IMG/VR virus record: IMGVR_UViG_2541047843_000008 | Reading direction: 5' to 3' (one strand) | From: a virus | Taxonomy: Duplodnaviria; Heunggongvirae; Uroviricota; Caudoviricetes | DNA: 40,690 nt | In this document: positions 2,399-40,690 of the stretch, piece by piece | How the letters are laid out: the number at the start of each line of letters is the position of its first letter | Position numbering within the stretch: the first letter of the stretch is position 1 | The notes under the pieces: generated by a model | What the model was told of the DNA's origin: nothing | The model's database searches: none | Seen by the model: only the letters and a program-made list of their open reading frames with translations | Translations under genes and position numbers: made by a program

Positions 2399-2696
2399 GT
2401 TTAGACCTCGATACTTTAAAAATTTGAACGACGTTACCGCGCGTTTTAATAACCGCAGCCAGCATGACAGCGTTGATAATGACCTCAGATAAATCCACAG
2501 CCATTGGCGTACGTAACCAGATTGCATAGGCGACTCGAACAGGAATACTGGCCGCAGCAACAATCAGGAAATAAGCAAGCCATCCTCCCCACCTTCGATG
2601 TTGAGAGCCGTTACGCCGGAATGTGACAACGCGAATTGCTATGCCAGTGCAAATAACTGCATTAGTGATAAGCAAAAAAAACTCATGCGTTACCAT
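2388..2696 (-). CDS. Small two-TM membrane protein, putative holin/antiholin partner
   Basis: Two hydrophobic segments; sits between holin and endolysin with overlapping ends. Confidence 0.4.
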
Positions 2697-3087
2697 CGTC
2701 TTTTCTCCCCGGAATTAACTCGCGTGGATTATCGGAACGGTGATAGAGCCATATACCAATACGCACAGCGACAATTGCTGACACGAATGCGCCTGCAGAG
2801 AAAACAATCCCTTTTTCAAAAGAGTCCTGCGTGATGGTAGGGATCAGGCTGGCTATGCCGATAAGAATTGATGCTGCTGGTTTGTAAAAGAGAAGGCCGC
2901 AAAGAAAGCTGAGCATCGACAGGAGCACCCGGCGACGGATGGGGTACTCTACTGCAGAGGTAACAAAAATTACCGCCCCAGCCAAAGCCCCTAAAGCAAC
3001 CTCCGGAGGGACACCTGCAATAACTGCAGCAAGAGAACCAAAACTAAGCAACTGATTTAATTGCTCACTTGTTACTTGAGCAGACAT
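2683..3087 (-). CDS. Holin (three predicted TM segments, charged C-terminus)
   Basis: Three hydrophobic helices and basic/acidic C-terminal tail; first gene of lysis cassette. Confidence 0.6.
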   Translation of the reverse strand: MSAQVTSEQLNQLLSFGSLAAVIAGVPPEVALGALAGAVIFVTSAVEYPIRRRVLLSMLSFLCGLLFYKPAASILIGIASLIPTITQDSFEKGIVFSAGAFVSAIVAVRIGIWLYHRSDNPRELIPGRKDDGNA

Positions 3088-3366
3088 ACTTTCTCCTGTT
3101 TACTATCTATAAGCCAGTCAATTATTGATGACTAAACCCGCATAGTAAACCATATATGAATCATTATTGTTCCATATCATATATCTCAATAAAAGTACTA
3201 ATGATTTTACAGAACGAGCCAGCAGAGTGGGGGCAGTTGTACAGGAACCATAGACTTAATTTTGTATTTAATAATGCTATGGTGTAATAAACCTGAACAT
3301 GTATTTAAAATACGTACTGATTCATGATAGAATTCAAAGATAACTTTTCACCAACTCAGTTTTTGA

Positions 3367-3395
3367 TGCCCGCAATATTTTGCGGGCTTTTTTTT
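3367..3395 (+). terminator. Rho-independent terminator, plus-strand orientation only
   Basis: Stem GCCCGCAA / TTGCGGGC followed by 8 T on the plus strand; abuts the tailspike stop. Confidence 0.5.
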
Positions 3396-6300
3396 AACGT
3401 TCTTCCAGAGACTGAACCCGCTCTTTTATCTTATCCATTTCTCTGCGCTGCCATGCTGCCTCGATATAGAATAAGAGATCAGGTCTGACCCCCCATCTAG
3501 ATCCTGCTGGCGTTATTTCAACGCGCTCAATGATGTCTTCCATTACCATCACTGGATTATCATCCTCATCAACAATGATGCTCCCGTCATTATCAGTCAG
3601 CGGCATTTCCCTTTGGCCAGTAATGACGTCATCATATACTGCGGGATAATCGTCATAGCAAAGAAAGGCATAGCGGCATGTTGTGCTTTCTTCTTCCATG
3701 AGTCCGTGAGAAATAAGAACATCACGAAGTTGCTGCGCGATTACACCATGATGTATCCTCGCCCCTTCTTCCCCCTTTATAGCGACAGCGTTCAGCCATT
3801 TATAAGCGATATACCTGACGTCACCCCAGGCATCCAGCAATGCTTCGTCAGGAGAGACAGGCTCTGTCTTTAATGTTCCGTCACTGGTAACCACAGGATT
3901 GGAGCCAAGATAAACTGTCGAGAACCTGTTTCCCGGACCACCAAGAGCATTTACATTATCAAGATAAGGTTTAACATCTCCGTTCTCAAAAAGATGTTCG
4001 AGTGCGTTATATACCGCGCGACGTGGAGTACTGCTTCCGGAACCATGCAACGTTATCATTGCACCATCTGCTGAAGACGTTGTTTCACCGCCGCTAACGA
4101 TTAATCTCTGAGCGGTAACATCATCAGACGGTACTTTCTTCGCAATAATGGCGTAATTACCCTCAAGTTTGACTTCCGCGCGAACTTGTCCTGATGTACC
4201 TGCATGGACAGTCAGTGACTGGACGGCAACATCATCTGTGAAATCAACGGGTACAGGAACCGTCCTCACGCCTGACGTCGACATAAAAGTAGGAAGCGTT
4301 CTGTTAGGAGTGGCTCCGTAGACAAAATCCCTTGAAACAAATTCTTCCTGTTTAATTTTCACCCTGAAACAATACAAATCAGCCGGGTGACCATCGTGAA
4401 CATAAGGATATTTTCTGTTGTTATCCCCTATGCTCCATGGGTTTAGAAAGTCTTCCCCACCGAAAATGTAGTACAGCCAGTTGTCTTTGATACAAACTGA
4501 ACCAACACCAACCGCAGAGTTAACTATTCCGCCCTGATAAATCTGATCAGTAACATTAACCCACTCTACATTATCCAGACTCCACTCATTGACGTTAACT
4601 CTGGTCATAAATGTTCTTGGATAATTTCCTGCATAACGGTTATCAGGTTCTCCTCCTTCCCACTCACCAAATGCGCGCTCACTGCCAAAAATAATCAGCT
4701 CATCGCCAACTTTGGCAAAAGGAAGGTTTGAGTGATGAACATTATTTGGGAAGCGAAGAGAATTCCATGATGTACCTAAATCAGAGCTTCTGTGCAATGA
4801 ACTACCGGGTTGAGTACTTAATGTCCCCCTGGTCGTCAGATACAGAATGCCATCATAATATTTTACACATGGCTCAGATGCATTCGCCTCATATTCTACA
4901 GGTATGCGTCTGCGAACAAAGCTACCAGGAGAACCGAAAGCATCAGAGAAATAGAGTATCCCAAGCTCGCGTGGACCAATATCACCATTATGGTAGCCAA
5001 CAGCAAAACTGTTATCGCTAATCGTCGCAAAACTGTGAATCTCAGTAACAGGAGTGCTTCCGTCAACAAAAGAAGGAATAGTTCCAAGACTGGTTTTTCT
5101 CCATGGTGACGAGTGAAATGATGTGCCAAAACTCCAGTATCTACCCTCGTTATTCTGATCCACATCCTGGGTATTTTGCGTCGTAACTGTAAAGGTATTT
5201 TTATCAATAACAGTAGTCACCGTCATATTCCCGGTAACACCTGTAACACCAGAGTTTGAGAAGTTGACAAAATCACCAGCAAATAATCCGTGATCAGTAA
5301 TGCGAATATAAGCGACTTGCTGATTTGCTGCTTTCGTTATACCACCATAAACGCGAAGGCTGCGACTCATTGGGCGATCCCACAACTCTGCAACCTGCAG
5401 TTTATTTCCTCTCACGGTCCGCGTCTCAATTACAGCAAAAAGGCGATTTCTGACAACCCCCATACTCATGCAGTGATAGTTAACTGTGGGATAGTTTTCA
5501 TGTAAATCTGTAAGCCATTCCGGCGTTGTCCAGGTCTTCCCGTCATCTCCTGAGCGAACCCATGCAACATGGAGGTTATTTACACCATGGCGGTCTCCAG
5601 CCATAAAAGGCGCATAGATGACATTGTCATATACAAACGTTTTATCCTGCGTCCAGGCGTTGTACCACGGTGTATCTGTAATTTTAAATAACTCTCCCTG
5701 GATAAAATCTTCAGAAGCATAAAAAAGAGGCTGGCCCGGTATTCTCTCAAATAAAAAACGAGCATTTTTAAATCGACTGACATCCGGAAGAGTTGATACT
5801 TTAAAAGTAAGCCCTAATCCGTCAATTTTATAACCTGGAGATGAGGCTTCAAGGCACGCGCTTATTGCAGTGGAATCGTCATTTATACCATCACCAACAG
5901 CTCCAAAATCTTTGGGGCTAATAGCATCACGCATTTTATCCTGGAACGTTCGGTACACAGCCCCAGAACCATACTGAATAAACCAACCAAAACCACCAAC
6001 AACCCCGGCGATTGCAGCATCGACATAATTACGCATTGAGCGATTATTTACAGCGTCCTGCTCAAGTGATGGATCTGCAAGGTTAGAAATTTTGTTTTGC
6101 TTTGCATCGTAATATTTTGCAAGCAAAGATGGTTTCATCAATGCACGTCTGAACCACCCAAAACATTGCTGGATCAGCATCGTCAGGTAGTCAAAAGCAT
6201 CTTCATGCACTTCGGGGAAAAATTTTCCCTGATTGCGAAGGTCTGTCTCCTGCACTACATCAAGCACACGATCTATCGTAATTCGCCATCCAGCAGCAAG

Positions 6301-7284: not shown

Positions 7285-7941
7285 ATGAACGCTCAACTCA
7301 TCCCCGTATTCAACGGCACTATATCTAACGAAACAGCCCTACTTTGTAATGCCCGCGATCTGCACGCTTTTTTAGGTGTTAAAAAGGTGTTTGCAGCATG
7401 GATTACAAATCGCATATCAGAATACGAATTCATTGAAAATCAAGACTATATTTTGCTTTCCAATTTGGGAAAGCAAACATCTGGTAGAGGCGGCCACAAC
7501 CGCAAAGAGTACCACCTCACCCTTGATACAGCCAAAGAGCTGGCGATGGTCGAGCGTAACGAAAAAGGTCGCCAGGTGCGACGCTACTTCATTGAATGCG
7601 AGAAACGTTTAAGACAACAAGAAACAAAAGTGGAGAAGGTCTTGTCAGGCTTCATGCCCGCCATAATGGAGGCGATCAAGCTGGAAGACAAAAAAGAATA
7701 CAGCGCCCCACTGAAGCCCGGCTACCGCAGCCTGATTCATTCGCCGTCTGGTGTTCTCGGCCTGACGGAGAACTCACTGCTGATGAATCTGCTGAACCAG
7801 TTACAGGACGACGGGCACGACGTATCGGGCGCGGCGGCGGAGCTGACCACCATGTTCTGCTACATCGTCGGTGTGAGCAAATGCCTGCGTGATATCCAGA
7901 CCCACGCGGAGTACATCAACGACAAGGCAGGGTTCTTCTGA
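7285..7941 (+). CDS. Antirepressor-like protein (N-terminal Ant-type domain plus C-terminal domain shared with 6710..6967)
   Basis: N-terminus resembles phage antirepressor N-terminal domains as recalled; SD GGAGA upstream; C-terminal paralogy seen directly. Confidence 0.6.
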
Positions 7942-33252: not shown

Positions 33253-34066
33253 CCCACACCCCTTCTATCCAGTCAGTGTTATTCCAGTCAAGCTCATCGC
33301 TTTTCCCGGCATTTTTTGATTTTCCCCTGATATGATTTACGTGCCTGGCGAATTTTTGTTCCCACTGAACCTGCGTGAACACTTTGCCCTCAGCCATCCA
33401 GTAATCCCGGAATGCAGCAAGTTCAGCAGGTGTAAATTCCGGTTCCGGCAGGGCCGTTCCCCACAGCGCAGCACGCCGCCGAAAATCTGGCGACGGTAGC
33501 CAGCCATCTGTCATCGGAAATTTCCCGATGGGTTCACTCAGGCCATCCAGAAATTCAGGTTCTGCCACCTGCAACGGCGTACTGTTCGCTTCACTGGTCG
33601 GAGCACCCTCGCGCACGTGCGCTATGTGTGGGGTTTTATATATATCTTCCTCTTCCTCTGGTAACTCCTTTTGTAACGCTGTTGGCGTTACTTTTTGCGT
33701 TACTCGTTTTCGATGCTCTGCCACTCTTCTATTCGTAAGTGCACGTTTTTTCGATGATTCTCCATTATGTCGCTCAAAGTTTGGAAGAATTAGTTTGCCG
33801 TCATGATAAGCAAGCCATCCGACGCTAATGAGGGCGTCAGCAAATCCTGTAATAAAAGCGAGTCTATCAAGTACTCCTTTTGTAACGCTGCCAGCGTTAC
33901 CGTCTATTGTTTGCTGGTCAGCCCATGCCCATATACGAACCAGCTTTCCAAGAACAGCATCTGGATCAATACCCAGAATTTCTGCTATCTGAAAAATTTC
34001 AGGTTTATCAGGAGTGATAACTTCAACCTTAATCCAGCTGCTTGCCATAGGTTTCCCCTCTTGCAC
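33224..34066 (-). CDS. Replication initiator (O-like position), with internal origin-like repeats; start may be internal ATG near 34048
   Basis: Directly upstream of and coupled to the P-like gene; contains two copies of a 27-bp palindromic element. Confidence 0.55.
   Translation of the reverse strand: MQEGKPMASSWIKVEVITPDKPEIFQIAEILGIDPDAVLGKLVRIWAWADQQTIDGNAGSVTKGVLDRLAFITGFADALISVGWLAYHDGKLILPNFERHNGESSKKRALTNRRVAEHRKRVTQKVTPTALQKELPEEEEDIYKTPHIAHVREGAPTSEANSTPLQVAEPEFLDGLSEPIGKFPMTDGWLPSPDFRRRAALWGTALPEPEFTPAELAAFRDYWMAEGKVFTQVQWEQKFARHVNHIRGKSKNAGKSDELDWNNTDWIEGVWDEINSRTSQ
33665..33900. repeat. Two copies of a 27-bp element CTCCTTTTGTAACGCTGnnnGCGTTAC (palindrome GTAACGC-N5-GCGTTAC) plus an extra half-site; candidate origin iterons
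   Basis: Copies at about 33665-33691 and 33874-33900 lie in two different reading frames of the same gene; extra GCGTTAC at about 33696-33702. Confidence 0.55.
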
Positions 34067-34241
34067 TCTTTAGTGCACAAGCAAATTCATTACGATGGCG
34101 GTTGGCGCTATTCATTGCACATTCAACACATGTTCCGTTCAGAACATACCTTTCAGAGAGATGGCCGTGACGGCACCGCTTTCCTGTGAAATAGCGATTT
34201 AACCCGGCTTTTGCGGCCTCCATTCTGGTTACTATCTTCAA
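34029..34241 (-). CDS. Small Cys/His-containing protein between Cro-like and O-like genes (cII-position regulator candidate)
   Basis: CRHGH...CVEC motif; non-ATG start in ORF track, internal ATG near 34223. Confidence 0.35.
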   Translation of the reverse strand: MKIVTRMEAAKAGLNRYFTGKRCRHGHLSERYVLNGTCVECAMNSANRHRNEFACALKSARGETYGKQLD

Positions 34242-34340
34242 TTTTTCCGCCCCTTTTTGTTATTGATATTGGCTATTTTGCACAATTGGAAAATTTGATC
34301 AACCAGATTTGGTTTTTTATTACCTTTGAGGTACGAATAG

Positions 34341-34368
34341 ATATGAAAAGACCGCCGGGTGGCGGTCT
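34341..34368 (-). terminator. Rho-independent terminator immediately downstream of the Cro-like gene (tR1-like position)
   Basis: 8-bp stem AGACCGCC / GGCGGTCT with GGGT loop; U-run on the minus-strand side. Confidence 0.5.
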
Positions 34369-34389
34369 ACAGAGGGTTGTAGCTGGATA

Positions 34390-34620
34390 TCATGAGTAGA
34401 AGAAGTATGCCAGTTCTGCTTTTGAGCGCAGCCATTGTCTTGTTTTACAGGCTTTAAAAAGCCCATTCATCAATACCTTACCTGGCATTTTGCGCTTGCC
34501 TGTTAAGTGAGTCTGGATATAGTGACTCGTCGTTCCGGCTTCCTGTGCGAAGGCTTCACGCTCATCCGGAGTAAGTGCAAGCCAGTGCTTTTTGAAATCG
34601 AAATGTCCGTTATCGCTCAT
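34390..34620 (-). CDS. Cro-like HTH regulator
   Basis: 76 aa, HTH-like segment, divergent from the repressor gene across the operator cluster. Confidence 0.55.
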   Translation of the reverse strand: MSDNGHFDFKKHWLALTPDEREAFAQEAGTTSHYIQTHLTGKRKMPGKVLMNGLFKACKTRQWLRSKAELAYFFYS

Positions 34621-34656
34621 AGCTATTGCCTGATATTTATTTCAGATAATAAATAT

Positions 34657-34720
34657 TCACCCATAAGGTAACAAAAATCAAGGATAGTTACCTATGAGGT
34701 GCATTTACCTGTTGGGTAAT
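34657..34720. promoter_or_regulatory. Immunity-region operator cluster: three TTACC-N5-GGTAA-type palindromes between the divergent Cro-like and repressor genes
   Basis: TCACCCATAAGGTAA, TTACCTATGAGGTGC, TTACCTGTTGGGTAA at about 34657-34671, 34688-34702, 34706-34720. Confidence 0.55.
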
Positions 34721-34774
34721 ATTGCTTTAAATTGAATCATCTACTGATTCATATATGAGGCGATTTTCCAGAAA

Positions 34775-35359
34775 ATGAAAAGTATCCAGGACGTCCGCAG
34801 GCAAAATCTCAACGACTTGATCGACCGTGAATTCAATGGTGTTCAGACGCGGATGGCAGAAAAACTTGGAACTCAGGCAAATCTGGTAAACCGCTGGGCT
34901 CTTGGCAAGAAGGTTATCGGCGACCAGGTTGCACGAAAAATTGAAGCTGCCGCCAATAAACCCCGTAACTGGCTTGATATTGATCGTTCGCTTTCTCAGG
35001 AGGGTTTTCAGCCTGTCGGCCCGAGCGATATAGGTCAGCTGGCGGCTCACAATCTGGAACGCTGGATGAGCGAAAGCCGCGACCTTTCAACACAGGGAAA
35101 ACTTCACCGCGCATCCGGCGTCGCCCAGGTGACAATCAGCCGCCTGTTAAACAATGAGGTCAGCGTTTCCATTTCCACCCTGGAGAATGTTGCATCCGCA
35201 TTCGGGCGTCACGGATATGAACTACTGATTCACCCGCACGACCCTGCGACTATCAACTATGACCGCTCACGCTACGCATTGTTACCCGAAACCGAGAAAG
35301 CAAAGATCGAAAGTTACATTGAATTTGTCATCAACCAGAACGAAAAAAGCAAACAATAA
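34775..35359 (+). CDS. Repressor candidate with two XRE-type HTH domains and no LexA-like autocleavage domain
   Basis: HTH-like segments VQTRMAEKLGTQANLVNRWALGKK and LHRASGVAQVTISRLLNNEVSVSISTLENVASAFG; own terminator downstream. Confidence 0.6.
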   Translation: MKSIQDVRRQNLNDLIDREFNGVQTRMAEKLGTQANLVNRWALGKKVIGDQVARKIEAAANKPRNWLDIDRSLSQEGFQPVGPSDIGQLAAHNLERWMSESRDLSTQGKLHRASGVAQVTISRLLNNEVSVSISTLENVASAFGRHGYELLIHPHDPATINYDRSRYALLPETEKAKIESYIEFVINQNEKSKQ

Positions 35360-35380
35360 AACTATATTTTTCAGTAAGTA

Positions 35381-35406
35381 AGCCGCCTCATGGCGGCTTT
35401 TTTATT
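35381..35406 (+). terminator. Rho-independent terminator after repressor gene
   Basis: Stem AGCCGCC / GGCGGCT with 5-nt loop followed by 7 T. Confidence 0.6.
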
Positions 35407-35416
35407 GCCAGATAGA

Positions 35417-35493
35417 TTACCTTACGGGTAATTTTTTTAACTCATATCTATTGACACCAAACCAAATAAGCATAATTATTACCTCAACGGTAA
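35417..35493. promoter_or_regulatory. Early (PL-like) promoter region with TTGACA flanked by two operator palindromes
   Basis: TTACCTTACGGGTAA (about 35417-35431), TTGACA (about 35451-35456), AT-rich -10 candidates, TTACCTCAACGGTAA (about 35479-35493). Confidence 0.55.
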
Positions 35494-35512
35494 CAGACCG
35501 AGGTAACAAGTT

Positions 35513-35665
35513 ATGCAGTGGAAAATCATCAACGGTTGGTACTGCGTTACTGCATGCGGATTCATGAGCTGGAAGTTCCGCACCTTACAGGAAGGCATTA
35601 AGTGGGCTTTCGTCAGCAAAGAAGCTCGCGATGTAGCCAACGATAACGAGATATGGGAGGGCTGA
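35513..35665 (+). CDS. Small 50-aa Trp/Cys-containing ORF, first in early operon (below the ORF-track size cutoff)
   Basis: ATG right after the operator; MQWKIINGWYCVTACGF...; stop overlaps next gene's SD. Confidence 0.3.
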   Translation: MQWKIINGWYCVTACGFMSWKFRTLQEGIKWAFVSKEARDVANDNEIWEG

Positions 35666-35667
35666 TA

Positions 35668-35967
35668 ATGAACGTTAATCAGCAGAAAAATCTTCAAAAA
35701 ATCATGCTGGCATTCGACAAGGACTACCGCCTGTCAGAACAGCTATATGACCGACAAGTTGAACTGATTGAGAGCATCCGACTTCATCAACTGTCCTCAA
35801 CTTTCGACGTTGTAACAGGCAAAGGCGTTCGTCAGGAAGTGCTGGAGGCTGCTAAAGACAGCCCTGAGTTCGAAGAACTGATAGATTCCTACCGGCGCGA
35901 GGCAATGGCAATTATCGCCCGCTGGGATCTGGCGGATCGGATTGATGGGCAGAGGGAAGCGGCATGA
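35668..35967 (+). CDS. Hypothetical early protein upstream of exonuclease (position of Gam/Abc-type anti-nuclease)
   Basis: 100 aa, GGGAGGG SD; function unassigned. Confidence 0.45.
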   Translation: MNVNQQKNLQKIMLAFDKDYRLSEQLYDRQVELIESIRLHQLSSTFDVVTGKGVRQEVLEAAKDSPEFEELIDSYRREAMAIIARWDLADRIDGQREAA

Positions 35968-36863
35968 TGCAGAACGCTGGAATCATGGATAGAACAAAAT
36001 ACATCGGAGGAAGCGATGTTGCAGGGATTCTTGGAATTAGCCCATGGCGCACCCCGCTTGAGGTTTATCTGGATAAGGTCCAGCCACGTGTCAAACCAGT
36101 AGACCCAAGCAAGCAGAAAGTTTTCACGCGTGGCCAGCGTATGGAGCCATACGTAATAGACCTGCTTTCTGAGGAAACAGGGATGGAAATCGTTCATCGC
36201 GGAAACCGCTATATCCACCGTGATTACGATTTTATTGCAGCTGAGATCGATGCAGAAGCAGCGTCAGGCGAGAACATTGAGATCAAAACAGTTAGTCCGT
36301 TCAAAGCCAAAGAATGGGGAGAAATCCAGACAGATGCAATTCCTGTGCATTACACGGCCCAGGCCATGCACGGGTTGATGGTTACAAACAAACAGGTATG
36401 CGTTTTCGGTGTGCTTATCGGTGGCGACGACTTCCGAATCTATCGGGTTGAGCGTGATGAAGAAACTATCCAGGCGATCTTAGAAAAAGAAATCGCTTTC
36501 TGGGACCGAGTGAAAAATCTTAACCCGCCGGAAGCTACCAGCGTAAGCGATGTATCGCTGATGTTTGAGAAAGATGCCGGGACAAGTATCGAGGCTGACG
36601 GAAAGGCACTCGCACTATTCAACGATCTACGAGACATGAAGTCACGCAGAAAATCACTGGAAGAAGAAATAGCTATATCAGAAGAGAAGCTGAAGATGTA
36701 CATGCAAGAGCACTCAGTCCTGACCCTGGACGGAAAGCCGCTCTGCACATGGAAATCTCAGATCAGCAACAGATTCGACCAGAAGCTATTCCAGTCAGTA
36801 CACCCTGAGTTATTCGAAAAATTCAAAACAACAACGACACAACGCGTCTTCAGAATGAAGTAA
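35964..36863 (+). CDS. Recombination exonuclease, YqaJ/RecE-like
   Basis: N-terminal YIGGSDVAGILGISPWRTPLEVY resembles YqaJ-type viral recombinase domain; paired with RecT. Confidence 0.7.
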   Translation: MMQNAGIMDRTKYIGGSDVAGILGISPWRTPLEVYLDKVQPRVKPVDPSKQKVFTRGQRMEPYVIDLLSEETGMEIVHRGNRYIHRDYDFIAAEIDAEAASGENIEIKTVSPFKAKEWGEIQTDAIPVHYTAQAMHGLMVTNKQVCVFGVLIGGDDFRIYRVERDEETIQAILEKEIAFWDRVKNLNPPEATSVSDVSLMFEKDAGTSIEADGKALALFNDLRDMKSRRKSLEEEIAISEEKLKMYMQEHSVLTLDGKPLCTWKSQISNRFDQKLFQSVHPELFEKFKTTTTQRVFRMK

Positions 36864-36872
36864 GGAGAAAAA

Positions 36873-37895
36873 ATGTCTATCAATGCACTTAAGGCAGCGG
36901 CTACCGGTAACCAAGTTGCACATCATAATGAGAAACCAACAACTCTGGCCGGACTTCTGGCAGACCCAAAAATTAAAGCTCAGATGGCTTTGGCACTTCC
37001 AAAGCACATGACAGCAGACCGTCTGGCGCGCATAGCAACCACAGAGATCCGAAAGGTTCCAAAACTTGCATCATGCGACCAAGCCAGCTTCCTGGGGGCA
37101 ATTATGCAATGTGCCCAATTGGGTCTTGAACCAGGCGGAGCTCTTGGACACGCTTACCTGATACCGTTCGACAAACGCCAGAAAGTAAATGGAAGATGGG
37201 AAACCGTATCTACAGAAGCACAGCTGATTATCGGCTATCGCGGAATGATTGACCTTGCCCGCCGCTCTGGGCAGATCCTGAGTATCTCGGCTCGTACCGT
37301 ACATACAAACGACAAATTCAGCTACTCATACGGCCTGGAAGAAACGCTCGAGCATTTACCTTGCGAAACAGGTGACCGCGGAGAATTAACGCACGTTTAC
37401 GCCGTTGCACGACTGAAAGATGGCGGAGTCCAATTTGAAGTTATGAGCCGGGCAGACATTGAGAAAGTTCGTGCACTGAGCAAAGCCGGTAGCAGTGGCC
37501 CATGGGTTGATCACTTCGATGAGATGGCTAAAAAAACAGTAATTCGCCGACTATTCAAATATCTTCCTGTTTCTATTGAAATGCAGAAGGCTGTTGTTAT
37601 GGATGAGCGCGCTGAAGCTGGACTTAGCCAAGATAACGCAGCTGTTATCACTGGTGAATATTCCGTAGTTGACGATGAGCGTCAACACCTGTCGCCAATT
37701 TCAGATTCAGAACGAGAAGAAGCTCGAGAATATATCATCGCGATACTTAATAGCCTGGATCCATCTGCTGAAGATGCAAAAACGATGTTCAAGCGCGCTG
37801 AAAATGAGATTAACACCATGGCTGAAAAGCTCGGTGATGAATATCACCAAAAATTCATGATGACGCTTAACGATATGCGTCCAGAATTCGAGTAA
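36873..37895 (+). CDS. recT: RecT-family single-strand annealing protein
   Basis: Central conserved-looking block SCDQASFLGAIMQCAQLGLEPG...AYLIPF typical of RecT; AGGAG SD. Confidence 0.85.
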   Translation: MSINALKAAATGNQVAHHNEKPTTLAGLLADPKIKAQMALALPKHMTADRLARIATTEIRKVPKLASCDQASFLGAIMQCAQLGLEPGGALGHAYLIPFDKRQKVNGRWETVSTEAQLIIGYRGMIDLARRSGQILSISARTVHTNDKFSYSYGLEETLEHLPCETGDRGELTHVYAVARLKDGGVQFEVMSRADIEKVRALSKAGSSGPWVDHFDEMAKKTVIRRLFKYLPVSIEMQKAVVMDERAEAGLSQDNAAVITGEYSVVDDERQHLSPISDSEREEAREYIIAILNSLDPSAEDAKTMFKRAENEINTMAEKLGDEYHQKFMMTLNDMRPEFE

Positions 37896-37944
37896 CCACC
37901 ACCGCGGTGCCACACGCGCCGCACTGCAACCAAGAGAGGTATTT

Positions 37945-38193
37945 ATGAAAGGTGCATTAGGTAAGAAGGAACTCCTGGCGGTGGTGCCACTGTCATGGAG
38001 CACTATCGACCGTATGGAGCGCGCAGGGGAATTTCCTAAACGCTGGTATATCACTGACAAACGCTGCGCATGGAACCGTGACGAAGTTGAGCGTTGGCTT
38101 GATGAACGTCAGGCAGCAAGCCCGGCAGAGTTCCAGGGTAAAAAACCTCCTGTTCAGCAACGTGTATATCGTCCCGTGAGCAACGCTGCATGA
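37945..38193 (+). CDS. AlpA-family regulator/excisionase-like protein
   Basis: LSWSTIDRMERAGEFPKRWYITDKRCAWNRDEVERWL matches the AlpA/Xis-type HTH pattern. Confidence 0.65.
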   Translation: MKGALGKKELLAVVPLSWSTIDRMERAGEFPKRWYITDKRCAWNRDEVERWLDERQAASPAEFQGKKPPVQQRVYRPVSNAA

Positions 38194-38302
38194 GTGCGCT
38201 GCTAAGGCACTGGATCAAATGGTCAGGATGGTACTTATTCCTGGCCTCTGTTTCAGCATGGCTTTATCTGCTGGCATTAATTTTCAGAGAGGGTTGGATT
38301 AA

Positions 38303-38602
38303 GTGAGAAAGTTAAGCCGACTTGAAAAATATCACATGAATAAGGTTTCAATGCGCAGTCCGTCAAAGATTGTCGCCGTTACTCCTGCGGCGATAGAGAT
38401 CGAAAAACGCGCGATTGAAAGAGAGAAAAAAGGGCAGTTCCGCATTGCCGCTCACCTTTGGCTTCAGTGTATGGATGTTGCTTCTGGTGATGTTGAGCGT
38501 GCAAGGATCGCGGTTCGCAGGGACCAATGTATCACAAAAGGTAACGGCCTTCGCCGTGGAGACTATAGCGGTATAGGATGTTGCGGGGTGGTTTATGACT
38601 AA
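38303..38602 (+). CDS. PerC-like transcriptional regulator candidate (start may be ATG near 38336)
   Basis: Segment KKGQFRIAAHLWLQCMD resembles the PerC-family core as recalled. Confidence 0.45.
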   Translation: MRKLSRLEKYHMNKVSMRSPSKIVAVTPAAIEIEKRAIEREKKGQFRIAAHLWLQCMDVASGDVERARIAVRRDQCITKGNGLRRGDYSGIGCCGVVYD

Positions 38603-39245
38603 GAAATACACACTAATCTATGCAGATCCACCCTGGGTATACCGGGACAAAGCCGCAGATGGTAATCGCGGTGCCGGTTTTAAATATCCAGTTATGAGTG
38701 TGCTGGATATCTGCCGCCTTCCTGTGTGGGATTTGACCGCTGAAAACTGTCTGTTGGCCATGTGGTGGGTGCCAACACAACCACTCGAAGCACTAAAAGT
38801 TGTTGAAGCCTGGGGATTTCGTCTGATGACGATGAAGGGCTTCACGTGGATAAAATGTGGTAGTCGACAACCAGATAAACTGGTTATGGGTATGGGACAC
38901 ATGACTCGCGCCAATAGTGAAGATTGCCTGTTTGCGGTAAAGGGAAAACTACCTACGCGCATTAATGCAGGGATCGTTCAGTCATTTACCGCACCGCGGC
39001 TTGAGCATTCAAGAAAGCCAGATATCGTTCGTGAAAAACTTGTGCAATTATTAGGCGATGTTTCTCGCATTGAACTGTTCGCCCGCCAGACGTCTCATGG
39101 CTTCGATGTTTGGGGTAATCAGTGCGAAGACCCGGCAGTGCAACTACACCCTGGATACGCGTTGGATATTGGCGGATTAACAAATGCATTCAGCAATGCT
39201 CCGCTGTCACCAACAGACATCCAGGGGCGAGAGCGTGCTGCATGA
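38595..39245 (+). CDS. DNA N6-adenine methyltransferase, MT-A70 family
   Basis: Catalytic DPPW motif (LIYADPPWVY). Confidence 0.85.
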   Translation: MTKKYTLIYADPPWVYRDKAADGNRGAGFKYPVMSVLDICRLPVWDLTAENCLLAMWWVPTQPLEALKVVEAWGFRLMTMKGFTWIKCGSRQPDKLVMGMGHMTRANSEDCLFAVKGKLPTRINAGIVQSFTAPRLEHSRKPDIVREKLVQLLGDVSRIELFARQTSHGFDVWGNQCEDPAVQLHPGYALDIGGLTNAFSNAPLSPTDIQGRERAA

Positions 39246-39436
39246 ACAGGGCATCACCAGCAGATTTAAGAAAATGCCTTGAAACTGCAAACATGCTTGC
39301 ACACAGCGGGATCAGGTTTGTTCCAATTCCCGCTGTCACTGATGCTGAATTTGCAACACTGTCAGCAATATTCGAAAACAAAATTGAATCACTGGCAGCA
39401 GAAGCAGAGATGGAAGAAAATCAGCAGAACTATTAA
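39242..39436 (+). CDS. Hypothetical small protein
   Basis: ATG overlapping the methyltransferase stop; 64 aa. Confidence 0.4.
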   Translation: MNRASPADLRKCLETANMLAHSGIRFVPIPAVTDAEFATLSAIFENKIESLAAEAEMEENQQNY

Positions 39437-39439
39437 ACG

Positions 39440-40690
39440 TTATTCCCCCGCCATCCACTTCTCAAACTTCGACGGGGAGAACGGAATCAGATCCGTATGC
39501 TCCCCGTCAATCCATGAATCAATCATATCGGCCCACTGCTGCAACATGTAGGCGCGCTGTCTGGCGTATTCCGCTTTGTTATATACGGCGCGCACACCTT
39601 TCTGCTCATGTGCCAGAGCCTTTTCAATCCAGTCTGAAGGATAACCAGCCTCATGCAACAACGTACTGGCTGTACGGCGCATATCGTGTACGGTGAAGCC
39701 CTGAATATGCTCACCATCTTCATTTATTATTTTCACCGTTCTGTCGATCAGAGAGTTCAGCGCGGCATTAGATAATGGCTTCCGGAAATTGTAACGACCA
39801 GGAACCAGATATTCACTTCCACCAGCGCACATCTGCAACCCGACCAATATATCCTGTGCCTGTTTAGGCAGGTAAATAACGTGCGCCCGGCTTCCCTTCA
39901 TGCGGTCTGGAGGAATTGTCCATGTCCATTTTTTAAAATCTATTTCATCCCACGTTGCATTGGTGAATTCGCCCTTACGAACCATAGTGATAAGCACCAG
40001 TTTTAAAGCCATTTTCATAGTGCCCATAGCACCAATGGCATCCAGCGTGCGGAAGAACAGGCCAATTTCTTCTGGTGTCAGTGTTCGCTCTCGTGGTTTA
40101 AATATGGCGATAGACGAAGGTTTAATGTCAGCCGCAGGATTAAACAAACCATGACCACGGTCATTGGCGTGACGGTATACGCTACTGATGATCTCCCTGG
40201 CCTGCACTGCTGTTGCCCGACCACCGCGTTCGACAATCCGGTCACACAAATCACGAACCATCGATGTGGTAATTTCAGCCATCATTTTGTTGCCAAGAAC
40301 CGGAAGTATGTCACGGTCGATCACCGCCTGCTTCATTGCGCGGGTACTGTCAGCCAGGATGACGTGTTTCATATAACTGTCGGTATGTACCGCAAACGTC
40401 TCGGCACCACGAATCTTTTTGATACCGTCACGTTTAGCCGCAGCCGGTGACTGGCCTGCTTTAAGCAGCTTCTTTGCAGCAATCAGTTCTTCTCGCGCTT
40501 CTGCCAGGCTGATACCGTCACGCCCATACTGCCCGATTACCAGTGTTTCGCGGCGACCGTTGATACGGTAGTCATAGCGAAACGAGACCGTGCCTGACGT
40601 AAGCACAGCTACATACAGCCCGTCACGATCGGAGACCTTGTACAGTTTGTCCTGCGGCTTGAGGTTTTTTAATTTTGTATCGGTAAGCAC
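39440..40690 (-). CDS. int: Tyrosine integrase (P4/IntA-like); start coincides with window edge
   Basis: N-terminus MLTDTKLKNLKPQDKLYKVSDRDGLYV typical of this integrase family; C-terminal catalytic region with R...HDMRRT...Y pattern. Confidence 0.9.
   Translation of the reverse strand: MLTDTKLKNLKPQDKLYKVSDRDGLYVAVLTSGTVSFRYDYRINGRRETLVIGQYGRDGISLAEAREELIAAKKLLKAGQSPAAAKRDGIKKIRGAETFAVHTDSYMKHVILADSTRAMKQAVIDRDILPVLGNKMMAEITTSMVRDLCDRIVERGGRATAVQAREIISSVYRHANDRGHGLFNPAADIKPSSIAIFKPRERTLTPEEIGLFFRTLDAIGAMGTMKMALKLVLITMVRKGEFTNATWDEIDFKKWTWTIPPDRMKGSRAHVIYLPKQAQDILVGLQMCAGGSEYLVPGRYNFRKPLSNAALNSLIDRTVKIINEDGEHIQGFTVHDMRRTASTLLHEAGYPSDWIEKALAHEQKGVRAVYNKAEYARQRAYMLQQWADMIDSWIDGEHTDLIPFSPSKFEKWMAGE

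Follow-up and report, generated by a model that had tools for sequence, protein, structure and literature searches.

The DNA analysed here, a stretch of 40,690 nt (IMG/VR record IMGVR_UViG_2541047843_000008; hereafter the window), is on sequence grounds a phiV10/epsilon15-type (Uetakevirus) prophage of Escherichia coli. Two overlapping genes on its + strand, lying where the original prediction had placed them, are the subject of this study: one for a PerC-family small protein (38303-38602, 99 aa from a GTG start; PF06069, phrog_868) and one for a predicted orphan MT-A70 (beta-class, DPPW) N6-adenine methyltransferase (38595-39245, 216 aa; PF05063). They are the counterparts of phiV10 genes p34 (gp34, PhiV10p34; PerC-like) and p33 (gp33, PhiV10p33; methyltransferase), in the same order and with the same overlaps; the pair is 98% identical to the phiV10 stretch, and the DNA from 37900 to 39440 is 98.2% identical to phiV10 p32-p36. 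Epsilon15 likewise carries its PerC-like gene (gp31) and an MT-A70 gene within one operon. The stretch was found in 559 of 5426 complete E. coli genomes (about 10%), where PGAP/RefSeq already uses the names "PerC family transcriptional regulator" and "MT-A70 family methyltransferase". Both are real, conserved accessory genes, their family membership being known from this annotation, and the dN/dS ratios of 0.07-0.13 obtained for both (comparison with Tyrion, epsilon15 and Stx phage F004) indicate purifying selection. In the literature searched no experiment on either protein or on any Uetakevirus orthologue was found: a study of the phiv142-3 prophage dealt with a tail-fibre gene and a hypothetical gene, neither of them one of these two, and a term search of the vB_EcoP_ZX5 paper returned nothing on the PerC-like or the methyltransferase gene.

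Upstream of the early-left operon lies a repressor-like gene (34775-35359, + strand, 194 aa) equivalent to phiV10 p40, the annotated product of which carries two HTH (helix-turn-helix) motifs and is similar to the putative epsilon15 repressor. It is followed by a terminator-like hairpin (35380-35399, + strand; 8-pair stem with 6 G-C pairs, then TTTTATT). The phiV10 record has a terminator annotated at the equivalent place, and an Rfam search of 34000-40690 gave a sub-threshold Phe_leader as its sole match, which corresponds to the same hairpin. The candidate early-left promoter (TTGACA-17-AATTAT, 10/12 consensus positions; 35451-35479, + strand) is the only + strand promoter-like site from 34523 to the end of the window, and no + strand terminator-like site was found from 35400 to 40455, promoter and terminator calls alike coming from consensus scans only. 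In the epsilon15 record, three repressor-binding sites stand just upstream of the first early-left gene.

From the promoter at about 35451 the operon would proceed through two small genes, a RecE-like exonuclease, RecT and an AlpA-family excisionase/regulator gene (37945-38193, + strand, 82 aa; Phage_AlpA 24.2 bits, gathering threshold 21; also phrog_66, "excisionase and transcriptional regulator"). Its last genes would be, in order, a 38-aa membrane protein gene that overlaps its neighbors on both sides (38190-38306, + strand; phrog_17484, 92 bits, full length), the PerC-like gene, the methyltransferase gene and a DUF1382 gene (39242-39436, + strand, 64 aa; PF07131, 105 bits, full length), the start of which overlaps the methyltransferase stop (ATGA). 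Placement of the pair in the early operon was thus correct, but the operon does not end at the methyltransferase as had been proposed, since the DUF1382 gene comes after it; DUF1382 is also found 3' of the methyltransferase in Stx phages, and directly 5' of it in four other loci. The stop codon of the tyrosine integrase gene (39440-40690, - strand; an ORF that both PGAP and the phiV10 record annotate as integrase) is 3 nt from that of DUF1382, and the operon would meet this convergent gene head-on. A single operon with translationally coupled genes is suggested by the one promoter-like site, the lack of + strand terminator-like sites and the overlapping start and stop codons. As the genes stand behind the post-repressor promoter-like site, with no internal promoter-like site, no expression would be expected in a quiet lysogen.

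The PerC-like protein had been described as a ~90-aa protein, and while it is indeed small, its length has to be corrected. The GTG start giving 99 aa overlaps the stop codon of the 38-aa ORF before it (GTGA), and the internal ATG used in the phiV10 record gives 88 aa; the 99-aa reading is preferable, since homologues in Salmonella, Citrobacter and Enterobacter have an ATG at the GTG position and residues 1-33 are conserved. The predicted PerC-family resemblance was borne out by an HMM search with the Pfam PerC model (PF06069; 30.1 bits against a gathering threshold of 22.6 bits, E 6e-7), in which residues 35-80 aligned with model positions 5-50 of 90, a region that includes the core KKGQFRIAAHLWLQCMD (residues 42-58). 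A pairwise BLASTP comparison with PerC of EPEC plasmid pMAR2 gave 24/60 identical residues (40%; E 2e-10), the match to phrog_868 is full length (207 bits), and EPEC PerC itself matches this PHROG family (E 1.7e-7). By sequence, then, the protein is a member of the PerC family, and like EPEC PerC and EHEC PchA/B/C it is small, encoded on a mobile element and built around the conserved helical core. The match to PF06069 is nevertheless not full length, with model positions 51-90 unaligned: the last ~25 residues of EPEC PerC have no counterpart, and the phage protein has instead ~33 additional conserved N-terminal residues and a conserved C-terminal tail of its own (GDYSGI..GVVYD), predicted to be disordered. 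An AlphaFold model of moderate quality (mean pLDDT 71.5) places helices at residues 28-42, 46-59 and 63-80 (pLDDT 81-89) and a disordered tail at 84-99. The protein gave nothing below E 0.99 in a PDB sequence search, and its model nothing below E 0.89 with Foldseek, where only generic TPR/MIT-like helical matches were returned. Three confident helices without a significant PDB match are in line with the description of Pch as having no homology to known DNA-binding proteins (PMC4764244).

The order AlpA, membrane protein, PerC-like is kept in epsilon15, SPC32N, Tyrion and about 20 IMG/VR loci, and the PerC-like gene belongs to the backbone of a phage genus that occurs in Salmonella, Citrobacter, Enterobacter and every kind of E. 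coli. Most hosts of this phage genus have no LEE. Given that it is encoded in the backbone of phages with many hosts, the protein probably has phage promoters as its primary targets. It would be made on infection or when the prophage is derepressed, and would act as a small three-helix protein with no recognizable DNA-binding motif, as the structural model suggests. By analogy with ANR proteins and with Pch, which relieves silencing by H-NS/StpA/Hha (PMC4764244), it probably alters transcription, either through the remodeling of nucleoprotein complexes of the H-NS type or by attaching to a different regulator.

The original prediction had cited as established that prophage-encoded PerC homologs in pathogenic E. 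coli activate host virulence loci, and had proposed a possible cross-talk with host regulation. Activation holds for PerC and PchA/B/C, the only members that switch on LEE1, and not for PchD and PchE (PMC6265319), nor for the PerC-like genes carried by two PICIs of E. coli, elements that share with this prophage an AlpA plus PerC-like arrangement: these had no effect, and EcCIMP1_025 represses LEE1 (PMC11773190). Judging from these relatives, PerC-family membership does not predict virulence activation, and because PchD/E and the PICI homologues do not activate, LEE1 activation cannot be inferred for the protein described here. That it serves as a host virulence activator, turning on LEE1/ler in lysogens, or else further loci gained by horizontal transfer, is in our opinion very unlikely. 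Its 40% identity to PerC falls in the region shared with Pch, and prophage Pch proteins do activate LEE1 by displacing H-NS (PMC4764244); yet the outputs of the family range from activation through no effect to repression (PMC6265319, PMC11773190), nothing in the protein corresponds to PerC model positions 51-90 and it has conserved parts of its own, the 33 N-terminal residues and the GDYSGI..GVVYD tail, phages of Salmonella, Enterobacter, Citrobacter and Klebsiella retain the gene, as do ~10% of all E. coli, and the consensus scan detected no promoter of its own. The variability of the family, a match confined to the N-terminal half of the model, the presence of this backbone gene in phages of many hosts and the lack of an internal promoter-like site leave the proposed cross-talk unsupported by anything specific to the two genes, and it stands as the inference it was. 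A role in the opposite direction, that of a repressor working as an ANR-type anti-activator or as a modulator of H-NS, also has to be considered. The ANR family (Aar, Rnr) and EcCIMP1_025 are small helical regulators without a DNA-binding motif that act via H-NS and other regulators, and the LEE1-repressing EcCIMP1_025 is suspected by its authors to be ANR-like (PMC11773190). The sequence similarity of the ANR family to the phage protein is weak: with the NCBIfam ANR model NF033650 the latter scores 23.6 bits (E 3.4e-5), above the 18.2 of canonical PerC, but both fall below the curated cut-off of 32, whereas with the Pfam PerC model the protein does pass the cut-off. No gene for an AraC-family partner was found near the PerC-like gene in the region examined, and we consider this repressive role distinctly unlikely.

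The identification of the second gene as an MT-A70 (DPPW) adenine methyltransferase was confirmed. The 216-aa ORF matches the whole PF05063 model (positions 1-172; 79.4 bits, threshold 23.9 bits; E 3.9e-22) and is by sequence a full-length member of the family, with the catalytic motif DPPW at residues 11-14 invariant among five homologues aligned. The nearest solved relative in a PDB search was Tetrahymena MT-A70 (7f4r, E 6e-13), with the RNA enzyme METTL3 behind it (E 3e-5); Tetrahymena MT-A70 is a DNA 6mA enzyme. In both of these proteins of the same Pfam family DPPW lies early in the aligned MT-A70 domain, and the S-(R/Q)-KP and E(L/I)FAR segments of the 7f4r alignment are conserved here as SRKPD (139-143) and IELFAR (159-164), again invariant in the five homologues. 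Tetrahymena MT-A70 and METTL3 each function in a heterodimer, paired with a paralogue that is inactive, and have additional subunits that bind DNA or RNA (PMC7544214), whereas the phage enzyme is a bare catalytic domain with a 29-residue tail. The only PADLOC match was this gene, with the Type II MTase model (260.7 bits); no restriction endonuclease gene stands beside it, its neighbors being the PerC-like, DUF1382 and integrase genes, and the enzyme is an orphan without a restriction partner. M.EcoGII and M.EcoGI are likewise orphan beta-class N6-adenine methyltransferases of prophages, non-specific and silent in the lysogen (PMC5778455), but of another family: M.EcoGII was rejected as a relative, being a 349-aa DPPY enzyme and not an MT-A70 protein, and so was M.EcoGIX, a plasmid-borne, single-strand-specific enzyme that is not MT-A70 either.

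The comparison that bears most directly on the substrate is that with M.EcoPA8orf6770P of the Stx2a phage phiPA8, the published primers for which map onto the gene compared here, that of phage F004. Residues 1-187 are 83-84% identical to this enzyme, an orthologous catalytic subunit; after residue 187 the C-terminal tail diverges fully, and the ~27 C-terminal residues of the STEC type are absent. In both the M.EcoPA8orf6770P-PNB-2 system and M.EcoGV of E. coli O104:H4 a DPPW core is followed by DUF1382 near the integrase end of a temperate phage, as in the window. The phiPA8 system belongs to Sepvirinae and has PNB-2 upstream, whereas the present phage is a podovirus of the genus Uetakevirus with a PerC-like gene in that place. 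M.EcoPA8orf6770P is reported to have a 13.5-fold preference for RNA, with 16S and 30S as preferred substrates, for which it needs its upstream partner PNB-2, and to raise spontaneous prophage induction; its effects on induction and virulence are lost in a DPPW-to-APPA mutant (PMC10810198). Alone it showed weak non-specific activity, and M.EcoGV has been assigned GATC (PMC10810198, PMC6602927), an assignment questioned by the authors as an overexpression artefact (PMC10810198). No homologue of PNB-2 or of the Tyrion-type winged-helix protein was found by tblastn anywhere in the window (best E 7.6 for PNB-2), and the idea that PNB-2 is a PerC-like protein in disguise was rejected by hhalign profile comparison (probability 0.1).

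The original prediction had pointed out that phage orphan methyltransferases can protect against host restriction or change host methylation. This is only one of the two published behaviors of its closest relatives, the other being the methylation of 16S rRNA that tunes prophage induction (PMC10810198). The enzyme would methylate adenine at N6 with SAM as the donor, and as the phage is without PNB-2, the subunit by which the Stx-phage orthologue is directed to 16S rRNA, replicating phage and host DNA would be the likeliest substrate. Specificity is likely either low or similar to that of Dam, in keeping with what is reported for M.EcoGV when expressed by itself, and the likely benefit is the shielding of progeny DNA from restriction sensitive to adenine methylation; a GATC-specific enzyme would add little, since the hosts already have Dam. 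Against DNA as the substrate, the orthologue is reported to prefer RNA once its partner is present (PMC10810198). That the enzyme is instead a 16S rRNA adenine methyltransferase like that of phiPA8, raising spontaneous induction through altered translation and not through DNA, would agree with the 83-84% identity of the core, with the published RNA preference and DPPW-dependent effect on induction and virulence (PMC10810198), and with the downstream DUF1382 gene common to both phage types. The RNA preference, however, needed PNB-2, which is absent here, and the tail that the authors suspect to bind PNB-2 is replaced from residue 188; variants without the last 27 residues do occur without PNB-2, and the rRNA base modified was never identified (PMC10810198). 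We therefore regard rRNA as an unlikely substrate.

The position of the two genes raises the question of whether their products work together. The methyltransferase start overlaps the PerC-like gene by 8 nt, but no lineage other than that of phiV10 has the two genes in contact: epsilon15, SPC32N and Tyrion have a DUF1317 gene between them, at times accompanied by one more, and the enzyme tails differ. An alignment of three phages shows the PerC-like gene of each ending ...TATGACTAA, and the ATG embedded in this end starts DUF1317 in Tyrion and SPC32N and the methyltransferase here. The direct contact would thus be a lineage-specific outcome of module exchange, and no sign of a working relationship. 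A two-subunit enzyme, with the PerC-like protein replacing PNB-2 as the targeting or activating subunit, could be read from the overlap as a sign of coupled translation, from the presence of both genes in one operon in every Uetakevirus examined and from the three-helix TPR/MIT-like fold of the model, which would suit protein-protein contact; MT-A70 enzymes are moreover usually heteromers (PMC10810198, PMC7544214). A second, independent juxtaposition occurs in a different operon of an unrelated lambdoid contig (L083), where a gene for a 146-aa PerC-domain protein (phrog_1324; PF06069 22.6 bits; hhalign probability 79.5) lies upstream of an MT-A70 gene and ends 2 nt before it, this divergent enzyme being 44% identical to that of the window. 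On the other side, the contact confined to the phiV10 lineage is explained by a swap at the shared ATGACTAA, enzymes with the same tail type follow DUF1382, DUF1317, a winged-helix gene, a further methyltransferase gene or an unknown gene, at least 20 unrelated families stand upstream of the enzyme across 75 loci, and PNB-2 and the PerC-like protein are unrelated (the hhalign comparison above); with 4-nt overlaps near-universal in these operons, coupling is generic. A co-variation of tail type and upstream gene, considered as a sign of partnership, fails for the phiV10 tail type, seen downstream of six different genes, and does hold for the Stx tail type, where PNB-2 is always upstream. A two-subunit enzyme therefore seems to us extremely improbable. 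We give as little credit to the broader proposition that PerC-domain proteins are recurrent partners of phage MT-A70 enzymes, in which the PerC-like protein would here take the place of a winged-helix PNB-2, bind the enzyme, direct or gate the methylation of adenine in rRNA or DNA and so set the rate of spontaneous induction of the prophage; if true, the PerC family, widespread and puzzling in function, would gain a second, non-transcriptional role.

Taken as a whole, the locus is best explained, with somewhat better than even confidence, as a set of Uetakevirus accessory genes in which the PerC-like protein would act on transcription and the methyltransferase would methylate DNA, the two not forming a functional pair. 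The finding confirms the routine annotation of a prophage present in about one tenth of E. coli genomes, and the label "PerC family transcriptional activator" says little on function. A close orthologue of the methyltransferase is reported to change prophage induction and Stx-linked virulence via a partner-dependent switch to rRNA methylation, and a widespread prophage lineage that has the enzyme and is without PNB-2 thus offers a natural comparison for what the bare enzyme does.

The gene at 38303-38602 (+) indeed encodes a PerC-family protein, as originally predicted. It exceeded the curated threshold of the Pfam PerC model (PF06069; 30.1 bits, E 6e-7, threshold 22.6), with only residues 35-80 matching (model positions 5-50 of 90), showed 24/60 identities with the founding member PerC of the EPEC plasmid pMAR2 (E 2e-10), and matched over its full length the PHROGs family phrog_868 ('transcriptional activator', 207 bits). 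The expected size of about 90 aa needs correction to 99 aa from a GTG start, since the first 33 residues are conserved in homologues having ATG at that position. The MT-A70 (DPPW) assignment of the following gene (38595-39245, +) was likewise confirmed: its product covers the whole Pfam model (79.4 bits, E 3.9e-22), falls into phrog_359 ('DNA methyltransferase', 400 bits) and matches the solved structures of Tetrahymena MT-A70 proteins (E 6e-13) and METTL3 (E 3e-5), with which its DPPW, S-(R/Q)-KP and E(L/I)FAR segments align. PerC-domain proteins are spread over at least six PHROG families, and by sequence the PerC and ANR families are evidently related; on the NCBIfam ANR model (cut-off 32) the window protein scored 23.6 bits and PerC itself 18.2 bits, below the cut-off.

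The two genes lie among five closely packed ORFs on the plus strand (37945-39436), encoding an AlpA-family excisionase/regulator (37945-38193), a 38-aa membrane protein (38190-38306), the PerC-like protein, the methyltransferase and a DUF1382 protein (39242-39436), with consecutive overlaps of 4, 4, 8 and 4 nt. The proposed placement in the early operon was thus sound, while its end was misplaced at the methyltransferase, the DUF1382 ORF being the last gene. 'Early operon' is a fair label in light of the promoter and terminator calls, which are consensus scans and not measurements, and of the epsilon15 record, where three repressor-binding sites are annotated immediately ahead of the first early-left gene. 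A repressor-like gene (34775-35359, +) is followed by a strong terminator-like hairpin (35380-35399, +) and by the best promoter-like site of the region (35451-35479, +; 10/12 consensus positions); no other plus-strand promoter-like site was found in the region scanned, and no plus-strand terminator-like site before 40456, inside the integrase gene. This placement implies that the PerC-like and methyltransferase genes would normally be silent in the lysogen. A 13-pair inverted repeat (35476-35509, minus strand) overlaps the -10 hexamer of the candidate early-left promoter and, by analogy with the three epsilon15 sites, may be an operator. The integrase gene (39440-40690, -) is convergent with the DUF1382 ORF, only 3 nt separate the two stops (39436-39440), and neither strand has a terminator-like site between the operon and the integrase gene, so that early-left transcripts are expected to continue antisense across the latter. 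RNase III sites are annotated around the integrase gene of epsilon15. Two separate genes encode the exonuclease (299 aa, YqaJ domain) and RecT (340 aa) at 35964-37895, as in epsilon15, whereas the phiV10 record has a single 586-aa RecE-RecT fusion there.

Positions 37900-39440 share 98.2% identity with phage phiV10, and the first 703 bases of this stretch match Salmonella phage epsilon15 at 78% identity. Of 5426 complete E. coli genomes, 559 contain the stretch; in these, RefSeq uses the names 'PerC family transcriptional regulator', 'MT-A70 family methyltransferase' and 'DUF1382 family protein', and the Pfam families given in the phiV10 record are the same. As these genes are already annotated and common, the finding restates what annotation already says about a widespread Uetakevirus prophage.

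Whether the PerC-like protein and the methyltransferase are functional partners was addressed by collecting 80 IMG/VR loci with relatives of the window enzyme and classifying their neighbors. At least 20 unrelated gene families occur directly upstream of the enzyme, and the PerC-like gene does so only in the phiV10 lineage (18 near-identical loci), which argues against partnership. Other Uetakevirus backbones, including epsilon15, SPC32N and Tyrion, carry the order PerC-like gene, DUF1317, sometimes one extra gene (winged-helix, DndB, DUF1382, another methyltransferase or unknown), methyltransferase. In the SPN1S/SPC32 group the gene directly upstream, overlapping the methyltransferase start, is of the DndB family (162 bits; SPC32N 2437-3504), a different candidate nucleic-acid-binding neighbor. 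The three aligned phages share TATGACTAA at the end of the PerC-like gene (window 38588-38602, Tyrion ~2600-2615, SPC32N ~2275-2289). The ATG embedded in it is the start codon of DUF1317 in Tyrion and SPC32N, and of the methyltransferase in the window. Since both of these genes begin with ATGACTAA, the contact is explained by a module swap at this microhomology, and the shared PerC-like end resembles a fixed joint at which cargo genes are exchanged by recombination. The tail of the enzyme does not track the PerC-like gene either, the phiV10-type C-terminus being found behind six different upstream genes. In favor of partnership, a second, independent juxtaposition occurs in a lambdoid contig (L083, IMGVR_UViG_2609459761_000003, 2564-3666), where a 146-aa protein with about 80 unassigned N-terminal residues and a C-terminal PerC domain (PF06069 22.6 bits, phrog_1324, hhalign probability 79.5) ends 2 nt before a 219-aa MT-A70 enzyme 44% identical to that of the window. 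This pair is flanked by a replication gene and a RusA-like gene (as read from the ORF translation), hence in a different operon and backbone. Two such cases are too few to argue for partnership, whose probability we consider low.

For the methyltransferase, the main rival is rRNA methylation tuning induction, as in the Stx2a phage phiPA8. There, spontaneous induction and virulence both increase with the MT-A70/DPPW enzyme M.EcoPA8orf6770P, but not with its DPPW-to-APPA mutant. The enzyme alone has weak, non-specific activity, while together with PNB-2, encoded by the gene upstream, it assembles 1:1 into a complex with a 13.5-fold preference for RNA, specifically for 16S rRNA in 30S subunits (PMC10810198). 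Residues 1-187 of the window enzyme are 83-84% identical to the Stx2a-phage enzyme (published primers map onto the gene of Stx2 phage F004 that we compared, confirming it as the same gene), but the two are unrelated past residue 187. No PNB-2 homologue was found in the window, and profile comparison showed no relationship between PNB-2 and the PerC-like protein (hhalign probability 0.1). Because PNB-2 is missing, DNA is the most probable substrate; M.EcoGV, a close homologue of M.EcoPA8orf6770P, methylated GATC in DNA when overexpressed alone (PMC10810198) and is listed as GATC in REBASE-based tables (PMC6602927). With no endonuclease gene nearby, the window enzyme is an orphan, and PADLOC recognizes it only as a Type II methyltransferase. 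Most probably, it would be an N6-adenine enzyme acting on DNA, Dam-like or of low specificity.

DUF1382 recurs beside the enzyme in both phage types examined (Stx phages and Uetakevirus-type loci), downstream in the window and Stx phages and upstream in four loci (L025, L026, L047, L053). In F004 the 'PNB-2 plus methyltransferase' primers of Gong et al. (3069-4299) end at the DUF1382 stop and the reverse primer of their longer construct at the DUF1627 stop (4691-4712), so both constructs also carried DUF1382. Window 7285-7617, translated, is 74% identical to the N-terminal part of the F004 'antirepressor', encoded upstream of PNB-2, which by position may be PNB-1 of Gong et al.; their forward primer did not map within 4 mismatches.

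Both genes are under purifying selection, with dN/dS of 0.10-0.13 (PerC-like) and 0.07 (methyltransferase) against orthologues in Tyrion, SPC32N, epsilon15 and F004, synonymous sites being near saturation. Across 27 homologues (Escherichia, Salmonella, Citrobacter, Enterobacter, Klebsiella, Raoultella, Kosakonia and an Erwinia symbiont) the PerC-like protein is conserved over its whole length, including KYH...VAVTPAA in the N-terminal part and the GDYSGI..GVVYD tail at the C-terminus. The AlphaFold model computed from their alignment (mean pLDDT 71.5) has confident helices at 28-42, 46-59 and 63-80 (pLDDT 81-89 by block); a further helix at the N-terminus is weaker, and the tail is disordered. 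Foldseek returned no significant PDB match; the top hits were TPR-like and MIT three-helix domains, which a weak Pfam MIT match fits.

Activation of host virulence, as originally suggested, and ANR-like repression are the main rivals for this protein. Pch activates LEE1 only under H-NS/StpA/Hha silencing and lowers H-NS occupancy (PMC4764244), PchD and PchE have no control over LEE (PMC6265319), and among PICI-encoded PerC-like genes those of EcCIEDL933 and EcCICFT073 had no effect, while EcCIMP1_025 repressed LEE1, its authors suspecting ANR-protein behavior (PMC11773190). Family membership is thus a poor predictor of output. The AlpA, membrane protein and PerC-like genes form a conserved block of a phage genus infecting many genera, so a primary role in phage development seems more likely than LEE control. 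Overall, the families and operon placement of the original prediction stand, and the host cross-talk that it proposed is not specifically indicated. The PerC-like protein is probably a small helical protein that modulates nucleoprotein or regulator complexes, and it and the methyltransferase would represent independent accessory functions expressed on derepression of the prophage.
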